Source: a virus
Lineage: Duplodnaviria > Heunggongvirae > Uroviricota > Caudoviricetes
Direction: 5' to 3' (one strand)
IMG/VR virus record: IMGVR_UViG_2721755728_000011
DNA: 64,000 bases
Within the stretch, counting starts at the first letter, position 1. The number at the start of each line of letters is the position of its first letter. Below the pieces are notes generated by a model, which saw only the letters and a program-made list of their open reading frames with translations, was not told the origin of the DNA and did not search any database. This document shows, piece after piece, positions 1-26,056 of this stretch. Position numbers and translations under genes: made by a program.

Positions 1-900
1 CCGTTCAGCTCACGTTTTTGTTCAGGCATAATCCGTCCTGAACAGGAAGGACACTGAATATAAGCCGCCTCACTTGCCAGCACAGGATCGGCAATATCAC
101 GGAAACCAGCAACCACATCGCCGCAGGGCTGAAAATACTCACCACAGTGTGGACAGGGCCAGTACCAGCGACGGCGATCACCACGGTTATAGAGCGACAG
201 GATCCCCGTGGTTGGTGGAGCCTCATGCGGTGAAGTCCGTCGCCATTTCACATCCTTCACATCCCTGCCGGGGGAACTCTCCACAAGCGTCATACCGCTG
301 GACATAAATGTGGTGGTACGTTTTGAGGCAAGAGAGAAAGCATCCCCCTCGCCATCAATATCTTCCGGAAAACGGTCATAATCCGTCAGCGCGACGCATT
401 TATAATCTGATGAAGGACATGATATTGACTGACGGCCAGCCGATTTTCAGGTAGTTGCCAGCAAGGAATGTTCTGTCATAAACGTTGTTGTCATTTTTGT
501 TCGGACTCAGGCGACTGACCACTTCCGGGCTGACGCGAAACGTTCTGGCGAGTCGTTTTTTGGAGTGTTCGCGGGCTTTTTCCTCCGTCATCTGAATGAT
601 CAGCATATCAGCAGGATCGCAAATCACGTTGTAAATCACCCAGCCGTCAATCAGGCCGATAGTCTTGCCGGTTCGTGCCGGGCCAACAAATATCACTGCG
701 TCGTATTCACGCGAGGCCAGGCAGTTCATAGGCTCAATAACATACGGTGCCACCAGCGGATCCCACGGGACTGAGTTCCCTGCCCCCATGGGCACCCGCA
801 TATACTGAGCAACGGCATCAGCAACCCGCATTCGTCTCGGTGCGCGAAGGATATAACCTGAATCGGTTCGTGCTGCCTTTGCGGTTTCCTGATTCAGCAT
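1..900 (-). pseudogene. Terminase large subunit (TerL), N-terminal 166 aa then stop at 400; homology continues in another frame to the window edge
   Basis: ORF 400..900 has a Walker-A-like FVGPARTGKT; the minus-strand translation of 1..399 in a shifted frame contains WPCPHCGEYF, matching the lambda gpA ACPHCGEE region. Frameshift or sequencing error. Confidence 0.55.
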
Positions 901-1394
901 TACTCCTCCTGCTGTAATTCCTCCTCATCATCCGCACCTGCTTCAGTCACCCGCAGGGCTATCTGATCGCGCAGATCATCAATAATGGACTGAACACGGC
1001 TCACAGCGGCAGGCTGCAGACCGCAGTCACGTTCCAGAATATCCGGTAATGTCTCCAGCACCTGCACGACCGCTTTTGCCCAGATGGCAAACTCCCGTCT
1101 GACATCACTGGCCGGAATGAGTTGTGCCGTTTCCTGTTCGAACTTAAGACGCTCACGTTCAGACTGATACCAGGCTTTGCGCTCATGCGCGTCCATTTCG
1201 CCTTCTGCAACCGGCGGTGGCAATGCCAGAAATGCCGACACAATATCAACCACCCGATAAAGCTTGAGGTTGCTTTCATGCCCCCCTGCAACGGGTAGAT
1301 TTTGCAGCCTTGCCGCAGCAGTCTGGCGATGTACACCTGACAGTGCCGCCAGTTGACTGATATTCAGCGTCAGATTTTTTAACTCTCGATCCAT
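900..1394 (-). CDS. Terminase small subunit (Nu1-like)
   Basis: 164 aa immediately upstream of and overlapping terL by 1 nt; N-terminal HTH-like region and acidic C-terminus; position next to a cos-like region. Confidence 0.55.
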   Translation of the reverse strand: MDRELKNLTLNISQLAALSGVHRQTAAARLQNLPVAGGHESNLKLYRVVDIVSAFLALPPPVAEGEMDAHERKAWYQSERERLKFEQETAQLIPASDVRREFAIWAKAVVQVLETLPDILERDCGLQPAAVSRVQSIIDDLRDQIALRVTEAGADDEEELQQEE

Positions 1395-1498
1395 ACCCGC
1401 TCCAGAATGTTTTAAACATGCATCTTGCGAACAACTTTAGGCAAACGGTGTTAGTGATGAACAAAAAACAATCAAAATCGACACCATAAAAATAAAAC

Positions 1499-1526
1499 CA
1501 CTGTAATATCAATCTATTACAGTGGT
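1499..1526. repeat. Perfect 10-bp-stem hairpin (ccactgtaat ... attacagtgg) upstream of terS
   Basis: Read directly from sequence; function unknown (possible terminase-binding or terminator element). Confidence 0.4.
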
Positions 1527-2010
1527 GGTGATGACGAATGAAATTTCAAAAACTAGCCTTTTTCCGCGACGCTCCCGCCCCGTGGCAGGCCACCCCACCG
1601 GGAGGACCCGTCAGCCTGACAGCTCTGACGAACGTCTGATACAACGCCTTGCATGAATGGCATCGGGATAATCCAGAAAGGCATAGCATCGTGCCCACAA
1701 GAATCTGTGTAAGTGTCCTGTTTCTTCCACCCACGCACAGGACTGGCGAGCATGAGGGACAAACCCGCGAACCATAAACGCGGTAAAAACCCGGTGTGCA
1801 TCGTTTTTGATTATTCCCGCACACTCGCGCAGAAGGAGTTCCCCGTCGGGCTACGGTCTCTGTTAATACGGGAATACGGCGACGATACAGCGCATGATGT
1901 GTCAGGCTTGAATACCTTTATCCGTTAAAAGGGATATCAGTTAAGCTATCCCGTGTAGGGTATAAGCCATTATCAAAGCCACTCTGTAGGGAGTGGCTTT
2001 TGTAATGGCA

Positions 2011-2036
2011 ATAAAAAGCCCCGCGAATGCGAGGCT
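2011..2036 (-). terminator. Intrinsic terminator downstream of Rz (segment A)
   Basis: GC-rich hairpin followed by a T-run on the minus strand; equivalent hairpin found after Rz in segment C. Confidence 0.5.
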
Positions 2037-2209
2037 AAATCCTGGTATTTGTAATGACTGGCTCTTATCTCAACGCAGCCCCTTACCGCGCGCAAGATAC
2101 TCAATATCAAGCATCAGCAATGAGATGTTTAATCTGGATTCACTCCAGAAGTGATCACCATCCTGTCTACAGAGCCAGATGTGAAGGATGATGAGTAAAA
2201 TTATCGCTA

Positions 2210-2677
2210 TCATCGAAGGCATTGCGTCCTGATGTATTCCTGAAGCGTTCTCAGTGCTGTTTGGTCGCGGATAATTCCGTCCCGGATACCGAGAACGTTT
2301 CGTCCAGCAACTGGAGAGAGTTCGACGGTGGCATCATTGCCCATGCCGGAGGCGCTGGAGGTTTCGGCTGAGGATGGCACAGGGCATTTTCCTTTGACGA
2401 ACACCCGACCACCATTATCAAGCTTGCGCCGAAGAGCATCATTTTCAGCTTTCGCATCAGCTAACTCCTTCGTGTATTTAGCATCGAGTGCATCAGCAGA
2501 ACGCTGGCGCTGCTGCATGTCAGTAATGGTGGCGGTCGCCTGCTTCAGCTCACTGACTTTTTTATCTCGCTGTTCTTTGTAGGCGATGGCGTTATCACGG
2601 TAATGATTGACCGCCCACGACAGGCAGACGATGATGCAGATAACCAGAGCGGAGATAATCGCGGTTACTCTGCTCAT
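2210..2677 (-). CDS. Rz: Rz i-spanin
   Basis: N-terminal TM segment plus coiled-coil-like sequence; start taken at internal MSRV as in lambda/DLP12 Rz; overlaps endolysin end. Confidence 0.8.
2251..2457 (-). CDS. Rz1: Rz1 o-spanin lipoprotein, embedded in Rz in another frame
   Basis: Signal peptide with lipobox (MVVGC) followed by Pro-rich sequence; embedded architecture typical of Rz/Rz1. Confidence 0.7.
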
Positions 2678-3171
2678 TGTTGCCCCCACAAACAGACTTC
2701 ACGCTCAATCTCACGACGAGTCATCAGGCCTTTCCATTGCTTACCGCCAGCGTATATCCAGCGACGTAGCTGGTCACATGCGCCTTTGATATCGCCCTGG
2801 TTTATTTTGCGAAGAAGCGTCGATGTTCTGAAATTGCCAGCACCCACGTTGTAGACGAACGAGTAAAGAGCGCCGCGCGTTGTTTCCGGTATATCGACTT
2901 TGATGTACGGGTTAATTTGTCTGGCAACCGTGGCAAGGTCTTTATTCAGGAGGGCTTTGCATTCTGCTTCGGTATACGTTTTACCGAGCATGATGTCTTT
3001 TCCGGTGTGTCCGTGACATACAGTCCATACGCCAACGATATCTTTGTATGGTATGTAGCTGACACCTTCCAGGCCATCGTCACCACTTGGGCCAGTGATT
3101 AACACTGATGCTATAGCAATTGCTCCGCCACCAATAGCAGCAGCAACTGCTTTTCGTAATGATGGAGGCAT
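2674..3171 (-). CDS. SAR endolysin (phage 21 R-type lysozyme)
   Basis: 165 aa with N-terminal Gly/Ala-rich signal-anchor-release segment, same family as DLP12 rrrD; follows holin. Confidence 0.85.
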
Positions 3172-3386
3172 TATTCACCTCTCGCAGCCTTGCGCTTATC
3201 TTCTTTAATCTTGAAATAAAGGTTTGTCAGGTACGTCAGCAGGCCAAATACCAGGCTACCCAGCACACCTATTGCTGCCCACTGTGAGGGCGTGACTTTA
3301 TCGAGCAGCTGTAAAAACCAGTAACCGGCACTACCTGCTGAGGTGCCATAGGCGACACCCGTTGTTAACTTATCCATGGATTTCAT
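3171..3386 (-). CDS. Class II holin (S21 pinholin family)
   Basis: 71 aa from MKSMDK dual-start motif; two TM segments; C-terminal [13 protein letters not shown]; track ORF extends upstream via an alternative start. Confidence 0.85.
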
Positions 3387-3453
3387 AACCCCACCTCGCA
3401 GATGCGGGTGCTGTGTAATGGAAATAAAAAGGCCACCTGACGTGGCCACCAAA

Positions 3454-4506
3454 TTATTTCCCCACCAGCTCGTTTATCTCTTTCACTGTCTGGTTAAACC
3501 GCTCTGACTCAAGCTCAACACCTAAGGCCCGACGCCCCAGCGCCATTGCTGCTTTTATTGTGGAACCGGATCCCATAAAAAAATCAGCAACCAGATCACC
3601 AGGTCGACTACTGGCATTGATTATTTGCCTGAGCATATCCGCCGGTTTCTCACACGGATGTTTACCCGGGTAGAACTGAACGGGTTTATGCATCCAGACA
3701 TCGGTATAAGGCACGGAGACTGATACGGAGAAATAGCGCCGGAGAGATTTAAACTCATCCAGCAATTCAGAATATTTGCGATTCAGTGAATCATAAGATG
3801 CCACCAGCTGGTGGTGTGGTTGTTCCAGTTGTTGTTCCTGAAACTTCTCTGCCGCTATACGGGAAAACAGTGCCTGTAACTTCCGATAGTCAGCCTCATT
3901 CGGCAACTGCCACTGACTGGCACCAAACCAGTGGGAAACCATATTTTTCTTACCTGTGGCTTCGGCAATTTGTTTTGCCGTTATACCCAGTTCGGCACGA
4001 GCATCCCTGAAATACGAAATCAGCGGTGCCATTATGTGCTGTTTGAGTTCCCTTTCTTTTGCCGCATAGCCGTCACTTTTGCCGCGATATGGCCCCTGGT
4101 AATGTTCAGCAAACAGAACGCGCTCTGTGGCTGGAAAATATGCACGCAGACTTTCTTTATTACACCCATTCCAACGTCCGGACGGCTTCGCCCAGATGAT
4201 ATGGTTAAGCACGTTGAAACGTTCACGCATCATGATCTCAATATCAGATGCCAGGCGATGCCCACAGAACAGGTAAAGGCTTCCGGCAGGTTTTAACACC
4301 CGCCAGAACTGGGCCAGACAGTGGTCCAGCCACTTAAGGTAATCTTCGTCCCCTTTCCACTGATTGTCCCAGCCGTTGGGTTTCACCTTGAAGTACGGCG
4401 GATCGGTAACAATCAGGTCAATGGAATCATCAGGCAGGGACTGAATAAAATGCAGGCAATCAGCGTTGATTAAATCAACACTGTTTATTTTTACAGTATT
4501 TTTCAT
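3454..4506 (-). CDS. Orphan DNA methyltransferase (N6-adenine/N4-cytosine, beta-class)
   Basis: 350 aa with catalytic DPPY motif (VTDPPYF) N-terminal and AdoMet-binding FxGxG (FFMGSGST) C-terminal; no adjacent restriction gene. Confidence 0.8.
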
Positions 4507-4656
4507 GGATCAGTAAGCGTAACTCTGGTAGGCTCACTCTGCTTTTGCGCTAAAGCAGTGGGCCGTGGTTCGCTTGTGACCAGTAAGCATGAGCGAATGG
4601 CTGGCAGGTGCTACCAACACCCACCAGCCGCCCATTTTCACAGCAGGAAACCGCCA

Positions 4657-4884
4657 TTACTGGCAGCGTCTGAATTTATTCCCGTACCCGCCGTTATCCT
4701 TCGCCAGACCCGCCAGAACTAACTGAGTCAGTATTAACTGGCACCGGGCTTCGCTTACTCCGGTAGTTCTCGTCATCATGCGTGGCGTTACCCACTTGTC
4801 AGCAGGTAAGAAATGAAGGACTGCGGCGGCGGTTTCTGTCATATCTTGCTGTTTTAGCATGTCTTTTTCCCTTCTGGTTAACAT
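4657..4884 (-). CDS. Hypothetical small protein (75 aa)
   Basis: ORF between methyltransferase and lipoprotein moron; weak HTH-like segment; coding status uncertain. Confidence 0.3.
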   Translation of the reverse strand: MLTRREKDMLKQQDMTETAAAVLHFLPADKWVTPRMMTRTTGVSEARCQLILTQLVLAGLAKDNGGYGNKFRRCQ

Positions 4885-4981
4885 GACATACCAATAACTC
4901 TTGTCTAAAAAGCCAGCAAGATAAAAAGTCAGTATTCACGACCACCAGCGTGTTTACTGTACTGCACCAAGTTTACGGGTA

Positions 4982-5006
4982 CAAAAAACCCGCTCAGTGG
5001 CGGGTT
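4982..5006 (-). terminator. Intrinsic terminator downstream of lipoprotein moron
   Basis: Hairpin cccgc-tcagtg-gcggg followed by T-run on minus strand; near-identical copy of the hairpin at 5658..5688. Confidence 0.6.
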
Positions 5007-5083
5007 GCTATCACAGCTATATATTTACTTATTATGCCGTTACTAACATTTATCTTCGACATATAATCGAAAACAAGGTTTGC

Positions 5084-5500
5084 TTAAAACTCTGCTTTCA
5101 TTTTATCCGGGAATTTTTTATTTGCAGCATAATAACTACCAAGTACATAAGCGTTCATTTGCTGCTCTACATCAACCCGACATGCCGCACTAGAACAAGC
5201 TCCACTGATAAGCCCAAAAGAACTCCCTTTAGCAGAGAGATCAGCTTTGATTTCCTCTACAGTGTTTTTCCCCATAGCAACTACACACCCTGTCACAATA
5301 TATCTAGCTTTCACATCATCCATGCTAAGGATAGTAGTTTTCGCAATTTTGCTGTATCCATCATTTTTATAAACATCCATGGCAAACGCACGGCAATCTG
5401 TATAATACGGACTTGCTTTAACTTGCGAATACTCAGGTAATTTCATACCTGCACAACCAACTAAACAAAAACCTATCGCTGCTATTAATACCTTTTTCAT
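5084..5500 (-). CDS. Putative lipoprotein (AT-rich moron downstream of Q)
   Basis: Start at MKKVLIAAIGFCLVGCAG with lipobox LVGC; AT-rich codon usage; flanked by duplicated terminator hairpins. Confidence 0.6.
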   Translation of the reverse strand: MKKVLIAAIGFCLVGCAGMKLPEYSQVKASPYYTDCRAFAMDVYKNDGYSKIAKTTILSMDDVKARYIVTGCVVAMGKNTVEEIKADLSAKGSSFGLISGACSSAACRVDVEQQMNAYVLGSYYAANKKFPDKMKAEF

Positions 5501-5657
5501 TACAGTCATAACCTAGAAGCATCATTGAAACTAATTTATTAAATAACCATCGAGTTTCTGGAATACAGACGTTAACCATCTCTCCAAAATCTAAAAGATA
5601 ATAAGAAAAAATGTTTAACGCACCAATCCATTTCATAGTTTCATGAGACATCAGGCA

Positions 5658-5688
5658 CAAAAAAACCCGCTCAGCGGCGGGTTTTTGA
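5658..5688 (-). terminator. tR'-like intrinsic terminator about 100 bp downstream of Q (bidirectional hairpin)
   Basis: Hairpin cccgc-tcagcg-gcggg flanked by A-run and T-run; position matches lambda tR' relative to Q. Confidence 0.55.
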
Positions 5689-5789
5689 CATTTACCAACG
5701 GTAGACATACAAGGCCCATCGTTGAGAAAATCTTATCCATATTTTTTGAAAAATGCAAGTATCACGTCGACATCTTCGGCGAAAATTAT

Positions 5790-6584
5790 CTATCTTGTCA
5801 CTTTTCTCAATTGCGATTCAGCATACGCTTCTTCCTGCCAGCACTTTGTAACCAGTTTATTAATAACGTCTGCATATCCTTTGTACCACTGATAATCCGT
5901 CAGGTCCGGTACCAGTTTCTGGACATGATGCCGCGCCAGTGTGGTTGGTAAACGGCTAAACCGGTTGCCATTGCAACGCCCACAAATCTTATAAACAGGC
6001 ACACCATGAAGCCGGGTTCTTTTTTCATCCAGGACAATACCTTTACCCTTACACCCTCTGCACGCTGTGCTGACTTCTCCCTTACCATGGCAATGCTGAC
6101 ATAGTTCCTTCACCCACTCTTCCTTGATAACAGATTCCCCGCTTCTGGAGTGTTTCACCACTTCGCGCAATACATTATGAAATCCAGTACCAGCACAATG
6201 CTCACAGCGAGCCTTACTTGCCGCAGACCTGGAATAATCAGCAAAGGCAAAATTCACAAGGTAAGGGATGATCTGTAACCGGGTTTCTTCACTCAATTTG
6301 TTCAATGTCGGGTTATCCAGTGCCATCGCGTAATTGAGCAGACCTTCAATCGCAAATTGAGGATCCTGAACACCAACTTTTGCCAGGAATAAGGCAAACC
6401 CAAGCGGTGCTTTCGACTGCACCATCCCCTGCGCAGCCATCACATCCGTAATCGTTAAACCACCTGAGCCTGTCGCCGGTGCGTCATCGCTCAATTTTGG
6501 AGATTTTGGGGAGTAATATTTTGGTAAGGCTTCAAGGTTCATGCTCGTTCTCCACTTACGCCAGTACGCCAATTGCCAGCGCAC
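5790..6584 (-). CDS. quuQ: Late antiterminator Q, QuuQ type (lambda Q family, long form)
   Basis: Cys-rich motifs CEHCAGTG / CGRCNGN align with lambda Q zinc-finger region; probable true start at MNLEAL (6542). Confidence 0.8.
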   Translation of the reverse strand: MRWQLAYWRKWRTSMNLEALPKYYSPKSPKLSDDAPATGSGGLTITDVMAAQGMVQSKAPLGFALFLAKVGVQDPQFAIEGLLNYAMALDNPTLNKLSEETRLQIIPYLVNFAFADYSRSAASKARCEHCAGTGFHNVLREVVKHSRSGESVIKEEWVKELCQHCHGKGEVSTACRGCKGKGIVLDEKRTRLHGVPVYKICGRCNGNRFSRLPTTLARHHVQKLVPDLTDYQWYKGYADVINKLVTKCWQEEAYAESQLRKVTR

Positions 6585-6888
6585 GATCGATAAAACGAAA
6601 TATCAGCTCCAGCTGGGAGCCATACTTCTCTTCAAATGCCACGGTATCCGCATGCAGCTCGTCGTGATGCTTTCTGCACAAAGGCAACACAAAGAGGTCA
6701 TGCGCTTTTGTACCCATTCCACCCTGACCGTGGCCTATCAGGTGGTGGGGATCATCAGCAGGCTTTCCACAACATGCACACGGCTGTGTCTTAACCCAGC
6801 GCGTGTACTTTTCATTAACCCAGCGGCGACGTTTTGGGCGTAACATAAAAGACTCCGGCGACTCCGGATCCACTTTCAGCGCCAGCAC
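6556..6888 (-). pseudogene. 3' portion of ydfU/DUF968-like gene with HNH-like motif, 5'-truncated at inverted junction
   Basis: 110-aa ORF with CACCGK...HHLIGH...CRKHH motif; ends at Q start as ydfU does in Qin; mirror copy on plus strand at 6975..7355. Confidence 0.45.
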
Positions 6889-6974
6889 CTTTTTCGCTTT
6901 ATCCTGGATAATGCTGGTGGCAGGAACCGAAGGAACAAGGTCACTCTCCCGGGTGTACCCGGGAAAGTGACCTT

Positions 6975-7355
6975 GTGCCTTCGGTTCCTGCCACCAGCAT
7001 CATCCAGGATAAGGCGAAAAAGGTGCTGGCGCTGAAAGTGGATCCGGAGTCGCCGGAGTCTTTTATGTTACGCCCAAAACGTCGCCGCTGGGTTAATGAA
7101 AAGTACACGCGCTGGGTTAAGACACAGCCGTGTGCATGTTGTGGAAAGCCAGCTGATGATCCGCATCATCTGATAGGCCATGGTCAGGGTGGAATGGGTA
7201 CAAAAGCGCATGACCTTTTTGTGCTGCCTTTGTGCAGAAAACACCACGACGAACTGCATGCGGATACCGTGGCATTTGAAGAGAAGTATGGCTCCCAGCT
7301 GGAGCTGATATTTCGTTTTATCGATCGCGCACTGGCGATTGGTGTGCTGGCCTGA
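6975..7355 (+). pseudogene. 3' portion of ydfU/DUF968-like gene (mirror copy), 5'-truncated
   Basis: Protein identical over its shared length to the minus-strand copy at 6556..6888; no plausible native N-terminus. Confidence 0.45.
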
Positions 7356-7945: not shown

Positions 7946-9043
7946 TTAGAACTGGTAAACCAGACCTACAGCAACGATGTCATCAGTGCTTACACCGAGT
8001 GCTTTAGTGAAGTCATTTTTGTCAAGCAGGTTGATTTTGTAATCAACGAAAGTAGACATATTTTTGTTGAAGTAATAGGTTGCACCTACATCAACATATT
8101 TGACTAAGTCCTGATCGCCCCATACTCCAAGATCCTTACCTTTAGATTGCAGGTAAGCAACGGACGGACGCAGACCGAAATCGAACTGATATTGTGCAAC
8201 AGCTTCGAAGTTTTGAGCTTTATTAGCAACGAAGTGATCAGCAAATACAGTCATATTCTGGGTTTCAGAATAGGTAGTGGCCAGGTAAATGTTGTTAGCG
8301 TCATATTTCAGACCTGCGGCCCAAACTTCTGCATTTTTACCGGAAGCAAATACTTCAGGAAGAACTTTCCCTGCATTAACTTGAGTGTCGGTACGATCAG
8401 ATTTCGCATAAGTTGCACCGATACCGAATCCTTCGTATTCATAGGTAGCAGAGAAACCGAAGCCATCACCGTTACCTTCGGTGTAGTTATCGAAATCGCT
8501 ACGATCGTTTTTGCCTTGGTACTGAGCAGCAAAGTTCAGACCATCAACCAGACCAAAGAAGTCGTTGTTACGATAGGTTGCAACACCAGTGGTGCGACCA
8601 GTCATGAACACATCTGTTTGGGTCCAGGTATCGCCACCGAATTCTGGCAGAACGTCAGTCCACGCACCGATGTCGTATGCTACACCGTAGTTACGGCCGT
8701 AATCGATTGAGCCGTAGTCACCGAATTTCAGGCCTGCAAATGCAAGACGGGTTTTGTCTTTGGAGGAACCTTGAGATTCAGCGCGGTTGCCTTTGAATTC
8801 ATATTCCCACTGACCGAAACCAGTCAGCTGATCGTTGATTTGGGTTTCGCCTTTGAAGCCCAGACGAACATAAGTAGTATCACCATCATCTGCATCGTTA
8901 GAGGAAAAGTAGTGCTTGGCATTAACTTTCCCGTACAGATCCAGCTTGTTACTGTCTTTATTATAAATTTCAGCTGCCTGAGCAGACATCGCCATCAGTA
9001 CTGATGCAGCTACAGCAGAAATTGCCACTGTTAATTTTTTCAT
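7946..9043 (-). CDS. nmpC: Outer-membrane porin, NmpC/OmpD family (intact)
   Basis: 365 aa with signal peptide [23 protein letters not shown] and C-terminal aromatic residue (..VYQF); DLP12 position between Q and holin. Confidence 0.85.
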
Positions 9044-23426: not shown

Positions 23427-24765
23427 ACCGGTAGGCGATCTGGTCGTTGATTTGAGTCTGGATGCGGCCAGATTTGACGAGCAGATGGCCAGAGTCAGGC
23501 GTCATTTTTCCGGTACGGAAAGTGATGCGAAAAAAACAGCGGCAGTCGTTGAACAGTCGCTGAGCCGACAGGCGCTGGCTGCACAGAAAGCGGGGATTTC
23601 CGTCGGGCAGTATAAAGCCGCCATGCGTATGCTGCCTGCACAGTTCACCGACGTGGCCACGCAGCTTGCAGGCGGGCAAAGTCCGTGGCTGATCCTGCTG
23701 CAACAGGGGGGGCAGGTGAAGGACTCCTTCGGCGGGATGATCCCCATGTTCAGGGGGCTTGCCGGTGCGATCACCCTGCCGATGGTGGGGGCCACCTCGC
23801 TGGCGGTGGCGACCGGTGCGCTGGCGTATGCCTGGTATCAGGGCAACTCAACCCTGTCCGATTTCAACAAAACGCTGGTCCTTTCCGGCAATCAGGCGGG
23901 ACTGACGGCAGATCGTATGCTGGTCCTGTCCAGAGCCGGGCAGGCGGCAGGGCTGACGTTTAACCAGACCAGCGAGTCACTCAGCGCACTGGTTAAGGCG
24001 GGGGTAAGCGGTGAGGCTCAGATTGCGTCCATCAGCCAGAGTGTGGCGCGTTTCTCCTCTGCATCCGGCGTGGAGGTGGACAAGGTCGCTGAAGCCTTCG
24101 GGAAGCTGACCACAGACCCGACGTCGGGGCTGACGGCGATGGCACGCCAGTTCCATAACGTGACGACGGAGCAGATTGCGTATGTTGCTCAGTTGCAGCG
24201 TTCCGGCGATGAAGCCGGGGCATTGCAGGCGGCGAACGAGGCCGCAACGAAAGGGTTTGATGACCAGACCCGCCGCCTGAAAGAGAACATGGGCACGCTG
24301 GAGACCTGGGCAGACAGGACTGCGCGGGCATTCAAATCCATGTGGGATGCGGTGCTGGATATCGGTCGTCCTGATACCGCGCAGGAGATGCTGATTAAGG
24401 CAGAGGCTGCGTTTAAGAAAGCAGACGACATCTGGAATCTGCGCAAGGATGATTATTTTGTTAACGATGAAGCGCGGGCGCGTTACTGGGATGATCGTGA
24501 AAAGGCCCGTCTTGCGCTTGAAGCCGCCCGAAAGAAGGCTGAGCAGCAGACTCAACAGGACAAAAATGCGCAGCAGCAGAGCGATACCGAAGCGTCACGG
24601 CTGAAATATACCGAAGAGGCGCAGAAGGCTTACGAACGGCTGCAGACGCCGCTGGAGAAATATACCGCCCGTCAGGAAGAACTGAACAAGGCACTGAAAG
24701 ACGGGAAAATCCTGCAGGCGGATTACAACACGCTGATGGCGGCGGCGAAAAAGGATTATGAAGGG
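23419..24765 (+). pseudogene. H: Tape-measure protein H, 5' portion only (about codons 1..448)
   Basis: Matches remembered lambda H through ...LMAAAKKDYE, then runs into antisense of the other H copy; the 574-aa track ORF is read-through. Confidence 0.85.
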
Positions 24766-24775
24766 CCTTATTCAG
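24755..24775. other. Inverted (tail-to-tail) junction between two truncated H genes
   Basis: Plus-strand H homology ends at about 24762; minus-strand H homology ends at about 24764; no shared flanking sequence. Confidence 0.8.
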
Positions 24776-26056
24776 TTCTTCCTGACGGGCGGTATATTTC
24801 TCCAGCGGCGTCAGCAGACGCTCATACGCCTTCTGCGCCTCTCCGGTATACTTCAGCTGTGATGCGTCCCGTTCGGCCCGGTCCCTGGCGGCCAGTTCAC
24901 CGGCTTTTTCCATATCCGACTGCAGCGTGGCCGCTGCCAGCCCCAGACGGGCATTTTCCCGGTCATTCCATGCACCCTGAAGGTTCGCACGAAAAGAGGC
25001 GGTTTTTCCCCGGCGCTGGCTCCGGCTCTGGTACCACTGCCATTTTTTATCCGCCTCATCAAATGCCTTCTGTGCACTGGCGAGCATATCCGCTGAGGAC
25101 TCAGGACGACCGATATCCAGAATGGCATCCCACATCGATTTGAATGCCTTCCCGGTTTTATCCGCCCAGGTCTCCAGTGTCCCCATGTTTTCTTTCAGGC
25201 GACGGGTCTGCTCATCAAAGCCTTTCGTGGCGATATCGTTCGCCGCCTGTAAGGCCCCGGCCTCATCACCGGAACGCTGCAGCTGCGCAACATACGCAAT
25301 CTGCTCTGCCGTCACGTTACGGAACTGGCGCGCCATCGCCATCAGCCCCGACGTCGGGTCGGTGGTCAGTTTTCCGAAAGCCTCTGCAACCTTGTCCACC
25401 TCCACACCGGATGCAGAAGCAAAACGCGCGACACTCTGGTTGATGGCATCAAACTGTTCACCACCACGCACACCGGCATTCACCAGGGCTGCCAGTGACT
25501 CACTCGCCTGGTTAAACGTCAGCCCTGCGGCCTGTCCGGCTCTGGAGAGCGTCAGCATGCGATCGGCAGTCAGTCCGGACTGATTACCGGAAAGAACCAG
25601 GGTTTTATTAAACGCTGAAAGCGTGGAATCCCCCTGGTACCAGGCGTACGCCAGCGCACCTGTCGCCACCGCCAGCGAGGTGACCCCGACCATCGGCAGG
25701 GTGATCGCACCGGCAAGCCCCCTGAACATGGGGATCATCCCGCCGAAGGAGTCCTTCACCTGACCGCCCTGTTGCAGCAGGATCAGCCAGGGATTCTGAC
25801 CACCGGCAAGCTGCGTGGCGATATCCGTAAACTGTGCGGGCAGGGTTCGCATGGCCGCTTTATACTGCCCGACGGAAATCCCGGCTTTTTGTGCAGCCAG
25901 CGCCTGGCGGCTCAGGCCCTGTTCAACAGCACTGGCGGTTTTTCTGGCGTCGGTATCCAGACCTGAAAAATGACGCCTTACCCGGCTCATCTGCTCATCG
26001 AAACGGACCGCATCCAGACTAAGGTCAATAACAAGATCACCAACCGGCTGGGACAT
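24764..26056 (-). pseudogene. H: Tape-measure protein H (segment C copy), 5' portion only (about codons 1..431)
   Basis: Minus-strand ORF matches H through ...YTARQEELNKAL, then reads antisense of segment B H. Confidence 0.85.

Follow-up and report, generated by a model that had tools for sequence, protein, structure and literature searches.

The 64,000-nucleotide stretch of DNA analysed here (the window) encodes a 350-aa methyltransferase at 3454-4506 on the minus strand, taken from the list of open reading frames with their translations. The gene belongs to a lambdoid prophage, where it has the Q antiterminator on one side and the holin/endolysin/Rz cassette on the other, and the locus comprises the following features, given in the direction of transcription:

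5790..6542 (-): late-gene antiterminator Q (PF03589), upstream of the methylase and in the same orientation
5657..5684 (-): tR'-like terminator hairpin, AAACCCGCCGCTGAGCGGGTTTTTTT, ~105 nt downstream of the Q stop
5084..5509 (-): 141-aa predicted lipoprotein with lipobox LVGC (phrog_4748, function unknown), between two near-identical terminators; context only
4980..5006 (-): intrinsic-terminator-like hairpin, AACCCGCCACTGAGCGGGTT and a T-run, between the lipoprotein gene and the winged-helix ORF
4657..4860 (-): 67-aa winged-helix protein (phrog_331), with the start used by RefSeq and the homologues
4507..4647 (-): conserved structured 5' leader RNA of 141 nt ending at the methylase AUG (4506-4504), from conservation, covariation, covariance-model matches and energies
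3454..4506 (-): M.EcoGII-family beta-class N6-adenine DNA methyltransferase, 350 aa, from profile, motifs and alignment
residues ~115-280 of the methylase: central part with an HTH-like TRD and a charged helical linker, from alignment
3424..3447 (-): terminator-like hairpin, GGCCACGTCAGGTGGCC and a T-run, between the methylase stop and the holin start
2210..3386 (-): lysis cassette directly downstream of the methylase, with a P21-type holin (3171-3386), lysozyme (2674-3171) and Rz (2210-2677)

A previous reading based on the sequence only had placed the methylase next to the lysis cassette, and in transcription order it does lie directly upstream of holin, lysozyme and Rz. The gene order Q, winged-helix ORF, methylase, followed by lysis genes or stx, is recurrent in E. 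coli, Shigella, Hafnia, Morganella and O157 prophages. No tRNA genes were found in the window; in Stx phages such genes accompany the methylase module.

Inspection of the window revealed a mosaic of three prophage segments joined head-to-head, and the natural neighbourhood of the gene is therefore better represented by an intact version of the prophage (L001). The copy in the window is truncated at an artificial-looking foldback junction inside a DUF968 gene, leaving the early region outside the window, and may as a result not be inducible. The methylase could accordingly be seen as the decaying remnant of a defective prophage, functionless in the present strain. We regard this as very unlikely, since the ORF is undamaged and its product shows 100% identity to the methylases of cdtI and Ayreon, both viable, plaque-forming phages, and since in strain C3 the same DNA forms part of a complete prophage that runs from integrase through tail genes.

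The methylase matches Pfam PF01555 (N6_N4_Mtase) with 145.9 bits, above the curated cut-off of 26.7, over profile positions 1-220 of 221. The order of its motifs is that of the beta class, with DPPY at residues 35-38, then the TRD, and then FFMGSG (FxGxG, SAM motif I) at residues 309-314, which bears out the class assigned from the letters alone. Homologues in the PDB align in two blocks, residues 9-115 and 282-335. The protein is collinear over its full length with M.EcoGII (81% identity, 281/349, 2 gaps; gap-free through residues 115-280) and 89% identical (310/348) to the reconstructed ancestor Anc291, both sequences being machine-read from PDF and the M.EcoGII copy, from Supp. Table S1 of PMC11551740, containing visible OCR errors. 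Anc291 is active on DNA and RNA (PMC11551740). Among phage enzymes, SfV orf48 is 98% identical and that of phage 1720a-02, named by Murray et al. as carrier of a very similar enzyme (PMC5778455), 80.9% identical.

Judged by these comparisons, the methylase is a known M.EcoGI/M.EcoGII-type prophage enzyme and the gene is not new; it is very common in prophages, and a further copy adds nothing new by itself. M.EcoGII, the founder of the family, modifies all adenines in DNA and is sold as a tool for mapping chromatin and RNA. Like M.EcoGII and M.EcoGI, which derive from prophages of E. coli O104:H4 C227-11 (GenBank EGT69837.1), the window's enzyme has the beta-class motif order, a length of 349-350 aa, the same TRD and linker, a temperate phage or prophage as carrier and no restriction partner. 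It differs from them in 19% of its residues, and their published descriptions are without an upstream winged-helix ORF or a leader RNA. Membership of this family had escaped the sequence-only reading.

M.EcoGII is non-specific, silent in its own lysogen and harmful when expressed (PMC5778455, PMC12707154). The window's methylase is predicted to perform SAM-dependent N6 methylation of adenine, and, extrapolating from a protein in which 19% of the residues are different, its allele would do so in any sequence context. An orphan enzyme could instead be sequence-specific in the manner of Dam or CcrM, and regulate the phage life cycle or host genes epigenetically rather than give blanket protection. 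Regulatory orphan methyltransferases are known from phages, e.g. Dmt of P1 (PMC12707154), the predicted fold of M.PflMI, the nearest relative with site specificity, is similar overall (PMC11551740), and the intact prophage carries a separate Dam-like methylase (L001 17792-18445). We nevertheless find site-specificity quite improbable in view of the identity to the non-specific M.EcoGII and to the active ancestor. Furthermore, the HTH-like TRD and the long charged two-helix linker are missing from M.PflMI (PMC11551740), whereas the window's methylase possesses this family trait, as judged from its gap-free alignment with M.EcoGII.

The methylase had been described as an orphan, and this description holds. 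No restriction endonuclease was found in the list of open reading frames, in the RefSeq annotation of the three matching regions of strain C3 or by PADLOC, which returned generic MTase_II matches only. The neighbours of the gene are Q, the lipoprotein gene, the winged-helix ORF and the holin, and not the adjacent cognate endonuclease of a Type II restriction-modification system. The intact prophage (L001) is likewise without any restriction gene. As the M.EcoGI/M.EcoGII family is non-specific, the idea of a "cognate" restriction enzyme, or of target prediction by REBASE, is beside the point. The proposed role as an orphan that protects phage DNA agrees, by analogy, with the literature on the homologue M.EcoGII (PMC5778455, PMC12707154).

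The hairpin at 4980-5006 is a near-duplicate of that at 5657-5684. The latter was aligned as the terminator stem in weak Rfam matches to Trp/Leu leaders, and the annotation of N15 places the same hairpin behind the late promoter. SfV and Ayreon carry the equivalent of the hairpin at 3424-3447, annotated there as a terminator. For the late promoter, 5685-5789 is the expected interval; a simple sigma-70 consensus scan gave no convincing site. The methylase is thus located behind two terminator-like hairpins downstream of Q, a predicted arrangement consistent with silence in the lysogen.

The small ORF upstream of the methylase had been reported as 75 aa (4657-4884, minus strand), with a weak HTH-like segment and a possible role as regulator. 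The ORF exists, but its length needs correction: RefSeq and all homologues use an internal ATG at 4860, giving a protein of 67 aa (MLKQQDMTE...), and the ATG at 4884 is unused. The HTH-like segment turned out to be a winged helix in the AlphaFold2 model (pLDDT 85.4, H-b-H-H-b-b topology). TM-scores against IclR wHTH and Z-alpha domains are 0.80-0.86, with Foldseek E-values of only ~4e-3, and the model is similar to stand-alone nucleic-acid-binding winged-helix domains, including Z-alpha and the mRNA-binding domain of SelB. Diverged relatives carry the NCBI name "TrmB family transcriptional regulator". As a winged-helix protein genetically linked to the methylase, it could plausibly have a regulatory role. 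A small protein with a DNA-binding fold, located just upstream of a methyltransferase and co-oriented with it, recalls the controller (C) proteins of Type II restriction-modification systems; unlike those, it is accompanied by no restriction gene and is a winged helix rather than an Xre-type HTH.

By analogy with PNB-2 of a different prophage methyltransferase (PMC10810198), the winged-helix protein could equally be a nucleic-acid-binding subunit. It might then direct the methylase to RNA, with phage or host mRNA or rRNA as the physiological substrate. In vitro, ssRNA and RNA:DNA hybrids are substrates of M.EcoGII (PMC5778455), methylase and winged-helix ORF are found together across genera, the model of the winged-helix protein resembles nucleic-acid-binding domains, and in the Stx-prophage precedent a 1:1 complex with the upstream winged-helix protein prefers 16S rRNA (PMC10810198). 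This explanation appears distinctly unlikely to us, as M.EcoGII works alone and is ~100-fold more active on DNA than on RNA (PMC11551740 Supp.; PMC5778455), while Gilliamella has kept leader and methylase and lacks the winged-helix ORF. The precedent, M.EcoPA8orf6770P with PNB-2, shares with our locus a prophage methyltransferase co-transcribed with an upstream winged-helix protein, but it belongs to another family (MT-A70, DPPW), lies near the left end of its prophage and forms an rRNA-directed holoenzyme (PMC10810198). That the window's methylase might itself be the STEC "rRNA methyltransferase" of that study was rejected on the same differences in family and position.

The strongest candidate for a regulatory element is the structured leader RNA between the two ORFs, to which the sequence-only reading did not refer. 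The helices proposed for it are:

4634-4630/4563-4559 (-): P1
4629-4618/4610-4599 (-): P2, with loop UUGGUAG
4597-4589/4577-4569 (-): P3
4557-4552/4545-4540 (-): P4
4564-4558/4537-4531 (-): P5, an alternative pairing
4581-4571/4519-4508 (-): alternative AUG-proximal helix, ending 1 nt before the AUG

Between the window and Hafnia and Morganella the leader is 69-72% identical, compared to 45-46% at third codon positions of the methylase. Its conservation is on par with that of coding sequence and, across genera, far above the level at synonymous sites. Manual curation of the helices was followed by tests against controls: in an unbiased MAFFT alignment 82.9% of cells are paired, as opposed to 29-45% in slid controls. 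Double-sided changes were found at 15 pairs, against 4-8 in controls, with none of 500 shuffles reaching the observed values for pairing and double-sided changes, although much of this covariation is between two clades, Enterobacteriaceae and Morganellaceae. Three to four helices are supported by compensatory changes; compensatory double substitutions occur in P2, P3 and P5, and P2 is wholly re-written in N15, Gilliamella and Providencia. P1 is almost invariant, as are many loop positions, and the junction nucleotides are conserved. RNAalifold on the MAFFT alignment returned only fragments of the structure, because P2 was misregistered. The generic marks of a structured leader, namely a conserved fold, compensatory changes and a fixed position in the 5' UTR, are thus all present.

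The spacer could also be conserved as DNA, for instance because it is a promoter or holds an operator site of the winged-helix protein, or only through recent recombinational spread, with no RNA structure involved. In favour of this are the invariance of P1 and of many loop positions, a winged-helix protein that is a plausible DNA binder, and a leader that is 100% identical between the window and SfV, with the small ORF 64% identical; an identical spacer amid differing flanking genes indicates mosaic exchange. This explanation seems unlikely. Against it stand the compensatory double substitutions, including the re-writing of P2, the conservation far above synonymous sites across genera, the fixed orientation and the invariable abutment on the methylase start codon.

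A structured leader RNA is further supported by its distribution. It is present in 2,689 of 5,426 complete E. coli genomes (about half), adjoins the same methylase gene in lambdoid, N15-like and VHML-like phages, and is annotated nowhere. In N15, VHML, Vibrio and Gilliamella a covariance model located it, again beside this methylase gene but with helix sequences that are largely different, and phage 1720a-02 has the same arrangement of winged-helix ORF, leader and methylase. It is absent from other family members (L036, L046, phiO18P and many Vibrio and Shewanella loci) and is therefore not obligatory; two covariance models run with filters off recovered no leader at the distant Vibrio, Shewanella, Psychromonas and phiO18P loci.

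A search of Rfam 15 (4227 families) gave no relevant match, neither on 2.7 kb (E<=1) nor on a 181-nt stretch (E<=10), the matches being noise and the weak ones to the terminator hairpin. In the literature, a search by leader sequence matched a cloning primer only, and a search by concept led to the motif catalogue of Weinberg 2017 alone, without a matching motif. Two other identities for the spacer were rejected. A 34-codon ORF within it (ATGGGCGGC...TGA) is not kept in frame, because 1-nt indels between close relatives break it, and the prophage sRNAs Pas, AgvB and AsxR have no association with a methylase in the sRNA papers.

The AUG-proximal helix is 87% paired in the alignment, compared to 20-44% in slid controls, but passed only some of the shuffle controls. 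The duplex has an energy of -11 kcal/mol (shuffled tails: -5.5), and the two overall folds are nearly isoenergetic (-55.4 and -56.5 kcal/mol). The leader shares with translational riboswitches and protein-responsive leaders a place in the 5' UTR with its end at the AUG, conserved junction nucleotides, covarying helices and two mutually exclusive, near-isoenergetic folds, one of which covers the initiation region. It differs from them in being without a match among the Rfam families, and its ligand or partner is only putative.

Taken together, we propose with a probability of about 0.7 that the locus encodes a late-operon anti-restriction methylase of the M.EcoGII type in a lambdoid prophage, with control at the RNA level. 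In the lysogen, transcripts from the late promoter would stop at the intrinsic terminators between Q and the module, keeping the toxic methylase silent; upon induction, Q-modified RNA polymerase would pass the terminators and the methylase would be made late. It would then modify adenines of the replicating phage DNA in nearly any sequence context, and the packaged genomes would be protected against most of the m6A-sensitive restriction systems that they meet in the next host, a benefit that is an assumption even for M.EcoGII. Hypermethylation would also expose the DNA to m6A-dependent nucleases. As a second layer, the three-way junction of the leader (P1-P2-P3, with the P4 hairpin) would leave the Shine-Dalgarno-less AUG region free, while in the alternative fold the 3' half of P3 would pair with the 12 nt directly 5' of the AUG. 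The leader may in this way gate translation. Candidate triggers are a ligand, the 67-aa winged-helix protein encoded on the same transcript, or some other factor.

A parallel is offered by Mom/Com of phage Mu, likewise a toxic, late, broad anti-restriction adenine modification that is silent in the lysogen (PMC12707154), and here too control would act through RNA structure at the translation-initiation region. The two systems differ in chemistry and protein family, and the leader has no resemblance to the com-mom RNA as far as this could be tested. No CxxC ORF encoding a Com-like zinc-ribbon activator was found in 4507-5100 of the window. Vibrio relatives have a small CxxC...CxxC ORF between leader and methylase, with a below-threshold match to Zn_ribbon_Com (E 0.037).

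More tentatively, and at somewhat less than even odds, we suggest that structured cis-regulatory RNAs of this kind form a class of their own, not described so far and dedicated to M.EcoGII-family genes, which ranges from Enterobacterales lambdoid and N15-like phages to VHML-like Vibrio phages and Gilliamella. The leader would be bistable, would respond to a ligand or to the winged-helix protein, and would control at the level of translation when a toxic enzyme that modifies DNA genome-wide is made. The possible importance of the locus therefore lies in regulation and not in the methylase itself. The leader and the linked winged-helix protein provide concrete handles on how phages keep such a methylase off, and then turn it on before packaging. 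In many Shiga-toxin phages the module is found between Q and stx or the lysis genes, so that this control could also influence their passage across restriction barriers between hosts.

From its sequence, the window methylase is a known and very common prophage gene, because 982 of 5,426 complete E. coli genomes contain (at least 80% coverage) a module spanning the start of the holin gene, the methylase and the small upstream ORF. Its description in the sequence-only reading, a 350-aa beta-class methyltransferase with DPPY before FxGxG, agrees with the ORF, the Pfam score and the motif positions: DPPY is located at residues 35-38 and FFMGSG at 309-314, the beta-class order. Solved beta-class enzymes cover only residues 9-115 and 282-335, and an insert of about 165 residues separates the two halves. 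When 50,697 phage records were searched by tblastn, relatives were found in cdtI and Ayreon (100% identity), mEp460 (99.7%), SfV (orf48, 98.3%), Stx2c phages (85%), phiP27 (82.6%) and phage 1720a-02 (80.9%).

M.EcoGII is a 349-aa non-specific beta-class adenine methyltransferase of a very large family, encoded in an apparent well-defined prophage, and a very similar enzyme has been reported on phage 1720a-02 (Murray et al., PMC5778455). The window methylase is about 81% identical to M.EcoGII over its full length, with two gaps, and about 89% identical to the reconstructed ancestor Anc291; both percentages are approximate, the references (M.EcoGII as printed in Supplementary Table S1 of PMC11551740) having been machine-read with small OCR errors. 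Anc291 is active on DNA and RNA, the M.EcoGII TRD is similar to HTH domains, and a highly charged helical linker sets M.EcoGII apart from its nearest site-specific relative, M.PflMI (PMC11551740). Across the TRD and charged linker region the window methylase aligns without gaps to M.EcoGII. By this comparison it belongs to the well-known M.EcoGII family, and the methyltransferase finding taken by itself is ordinary. M.EcoGII modifies adenine irrespective of context; its substrates are dsDNA, ssDNA and RNA:DNA hybrids, with weak activity on RNA. It is silent in its native lysogen, slows growth upon expression, and is presumed to be turned on at induction to overcome restriction (PMC5778455).

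Genes for a P21-type holin, lysozyme and Rz are located downstream of the methylase on the same strand. On the upstream side the small ORF comes first, then the gene of a predicted lipoprotein (141 aa) and that of a Q antiterminator (PF03589):

3424-3447, minus (coding) strand: terminator-like hairpin between methylase and holin
3454-4506, minus strand: beta-class methyltransferase, 350 aa; Pfam N6_N4_Mtase 145.9 bits, cut-off 26.7
4507-4647, minus strand: 141-nt spacer between small ORF and methylase AUG
4657-4860, minus strand: small winged-helix ORF
4980-5006, minus (coding) strand: terminator-like hairpin, near-duplicate of 5657-5684
5084-5509, minus strand: predicted lipoprotein gene, phrog_4748
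5657-5684, minus (coding) strand: terminator-like hairpin, about 105 nt past the Q stop

The order Q, small ORF, methylase, followed by lysis genes, stx or tRNAs, is found in SfV, phiP27, 1720a-02, Hafnia phage yong2, Morganella phage IME1369_02 and prophages of E. coli JJ2434 and O157:H7, which carry several unrelated Q types. ARAGORN found no tRNA genes in the window. In N15 the same kind of hairpin is annotated immediately past the late promoter. Since the late promoter of the window operon was not located, we can only infer Q-dependent late expression of the methylase. The near-identical hairpins at 4980-5006 and 5657-5684 bracket the low-GC lipoprotein gene, which has no Pfam or PADLOC match and looks as if it were a moron inserted at tR', with the terminator duplicated.

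The window derives from E. coli DNA. Strain C3 carries positions 1-6955 at 100% identity within a lambdoid prophage that is otherwise complete; from 6956 to about 24760 the match is to a DLP12-like prophage at a distant locus of that strain, and the remainder matches a third prophage. In C3, otherwise identical, the three prophage segments lie megabases apart; in the window they form a mosaic, joined head-to-head at near-perfect palindromes. A 395-nt inverted repeat inside DUF968 genes forms the first join (arms 6560-6954 and 6957-7351, 2 nt apart), and this junction is absent from all complete E. coli genomes searched; the second, around 24730 (about 24589-24868), is roughly palindromic and lies inside tail tape-measure genes. 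The joins look like foldback or chimeric assembly products rather than simple inversions, and therefore the lack of a restriction gene in the window is by itself a weak statement. The earlier claim nevertheless holds: the annotation of the window's equivalents lists a single endonuclease, an HNH gene within the third prophage's nin region, and the intact C3 prophage has no restriction gene from integrase to tail genes. Reading the gene as an orphan phage methyltransferase was reasonable but under-specified, as no cognate restriction enzyme is expected for a member of the M.EcoGII family.

The part of the intact prophage absent from the window encodes, in its nin region, a second, Dam-like adenine methylase ('phage N-6-adenine-methyltransferase', L001 17792-18445), so that the phage has two adenine methylases. 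The DLP12-like segment carries an intact 365-aa NmpC/OmpC-like porin gene (7946-9043, minus strand) adjoining quuD. A 590-aa ORF (44132-45904, plus strand) without Pfam or PADLOC match falls within the stretch of the window where GC is lowest (0.34); it belongs to the nin region of the third prophage segment, close to IS3 copies.

The small ORF had been read as 75 aa with a weak HTH. The length is corrected to 67 aa, since ATG 4860 is the start in RefSeq and in all homologues, and the fold is borne out by an AlphaFold2 model (24 sequences, pLDDT 85.4) of canonical winged-helix topology. It belongs to phrog_331 (function unknown) and matches Pfam MarR and TrmB only below threshold; NCBI names a diverged clade 'TrmB family transcriptional regulator'. 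Foldseek matches are weak (E about 4e-3), with TM 0.80 to an IclR-type wHTH, 0.84-0.86 to Z-alpha and 0.77 to the SelB mRNA-binding domain. The ORF is located 140-155 nt upstream of the methylase in 57 phage records. Distant homologues are N15 gp51 (25% identity, pairwise E 5e-6), located before the late promoter, and a protein of a Vibrio locus; the Gilliamella locus has none. In a different Stx-prophage methyltransferase, an upstream winged-helix protein is the specificity subunit (PMC10810198), but that enzyme is an MT-A70 with DPPW and not the window gene. The product may be a regulator or a subunit. Its first 11 codons (MLKQQDMTETA, 4830-4860) and the RCQLILTQL segment (4715-4740, both minus strand) are conserved at the nucleotide level across genera, and its middle is a mosaic with two alternative versions.

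When the region from small ORF to methylase was aligned for six phages, the spacer was better conserved than the small ORF. Between the window and Hafnia or Morganella, identity is 69-72% in the spacer, 67-70% in the methylase CDS (45-46% at third codon positions) and 61-65% in the small ORF. A methylase alignment scan with one genome per species gave 80 loci, and at every detected Enterobacterales locus an nhmmer spacer profile matched directly 5' of the methylase ATG. One-nucleotide indels rule out a conserved ORF within the spacer.

Helices P2, P3, P4 and P5 were curated by hand and then tested on an unbiased MAFFT alignment, where 82.9% of cells were paired versus 29-45% with slid partners, and 15 pairs had double-sided changes versus 4-8 in controls; 0 of 500 shuffles reached the observed values. 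Pairing was 85-89% on model-fitted alignments. The long-range helix P1 (UGGGC/GCCCA), mutually exclusive with P5, is 99% paired and nearly invariant; the departures are a single A-U double change, in L028, and in Gilliamella a shifted pairing, UGGGG/CCCCA. Judged by comparative sequence analysis, the RNA of the spacer has a conserved structure.

The methylase AUG in Enterobacteriaceae is without a Shine-Dalgarno sequence. The 3' half of P3 (GGUCACAAGCG) could pair instead with the tail CGCUUACUGAUC, ending one base 5' of the AUG. This pairing is 87% conserved versus 20-44% in slid controls and has clade-specific compensation, and it passed only some shuffle controls; its mean duplex energy is -11 kcal/mol versus -5.5 for shuffled tails. 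For the window leader, the three-way junction (P1, P2, P3 and P4) folds at -55.4 kcal/mol and the alternative (P2, P4, P5 and tail helix) at -56.5, with an MFE of -56.9. The leader may thus act as a translational switch. In nearly all Enterobacterales copies a Dam site (GATC; 4508-4511 in the window, minus strand) lies one base 5' of the methylase ATG; together with a second GAUC/GGUC, in the P3 loop, it makes up the alternative helix's core.

Covariance models R1 and R2 found 61 Enterobacterales copies (87-169 bits), among them a single one in the window (4503-4647, 156 bits). Distant members, with helix sequences largely rewritten, were found at four Vibrio loci (37-44 bits), upstream of ORF17 in VHML (46 bits), between the late terminator and gp52 in N15 (44 bits) and in Gilliamella (37 bits), the most divergent locus bearing the leader. 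The models did not find it upstream of more divergent Vibrio, Shewanella and Psychromonas genes, or at phiO18P or two Erwiniaceae loci. At the Vibrio loci (L071 3834-3962, a Vibrio MAG; L072, L073 and L085 similar) the leader ends at the AUG of a 42-aa ORF between leader and methylase, a double-CxxC zinc-ribbon (MTKLIPLRCPRCNKLL...) reminiscent of Mu Com, with Pfam Zn_ribbon_Com below threshold (E 0.037). In Gilliamella (L075 5053-6279) the adenine methylase is directly followed by a C5-cytosine methyltransferase-like ORF and lacks an upstream winged-helix ORF.

By blastn the leader is present in 60 phage records, abutting the methylase start in each and annotated as RNA in none. Among 5,426 complete E. 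coli genomes, 2,689 have it, at 3,970 unannotated places and up to eight per genome. Rfam 15 holds no matching family, and literature searches by leader sequence and by concept revealed nothing matching. The leader RNA is widespread, apparently undescribed and tied to the M.EcoGII gene family, and it is the sole part of this follow-up that deserves more work.
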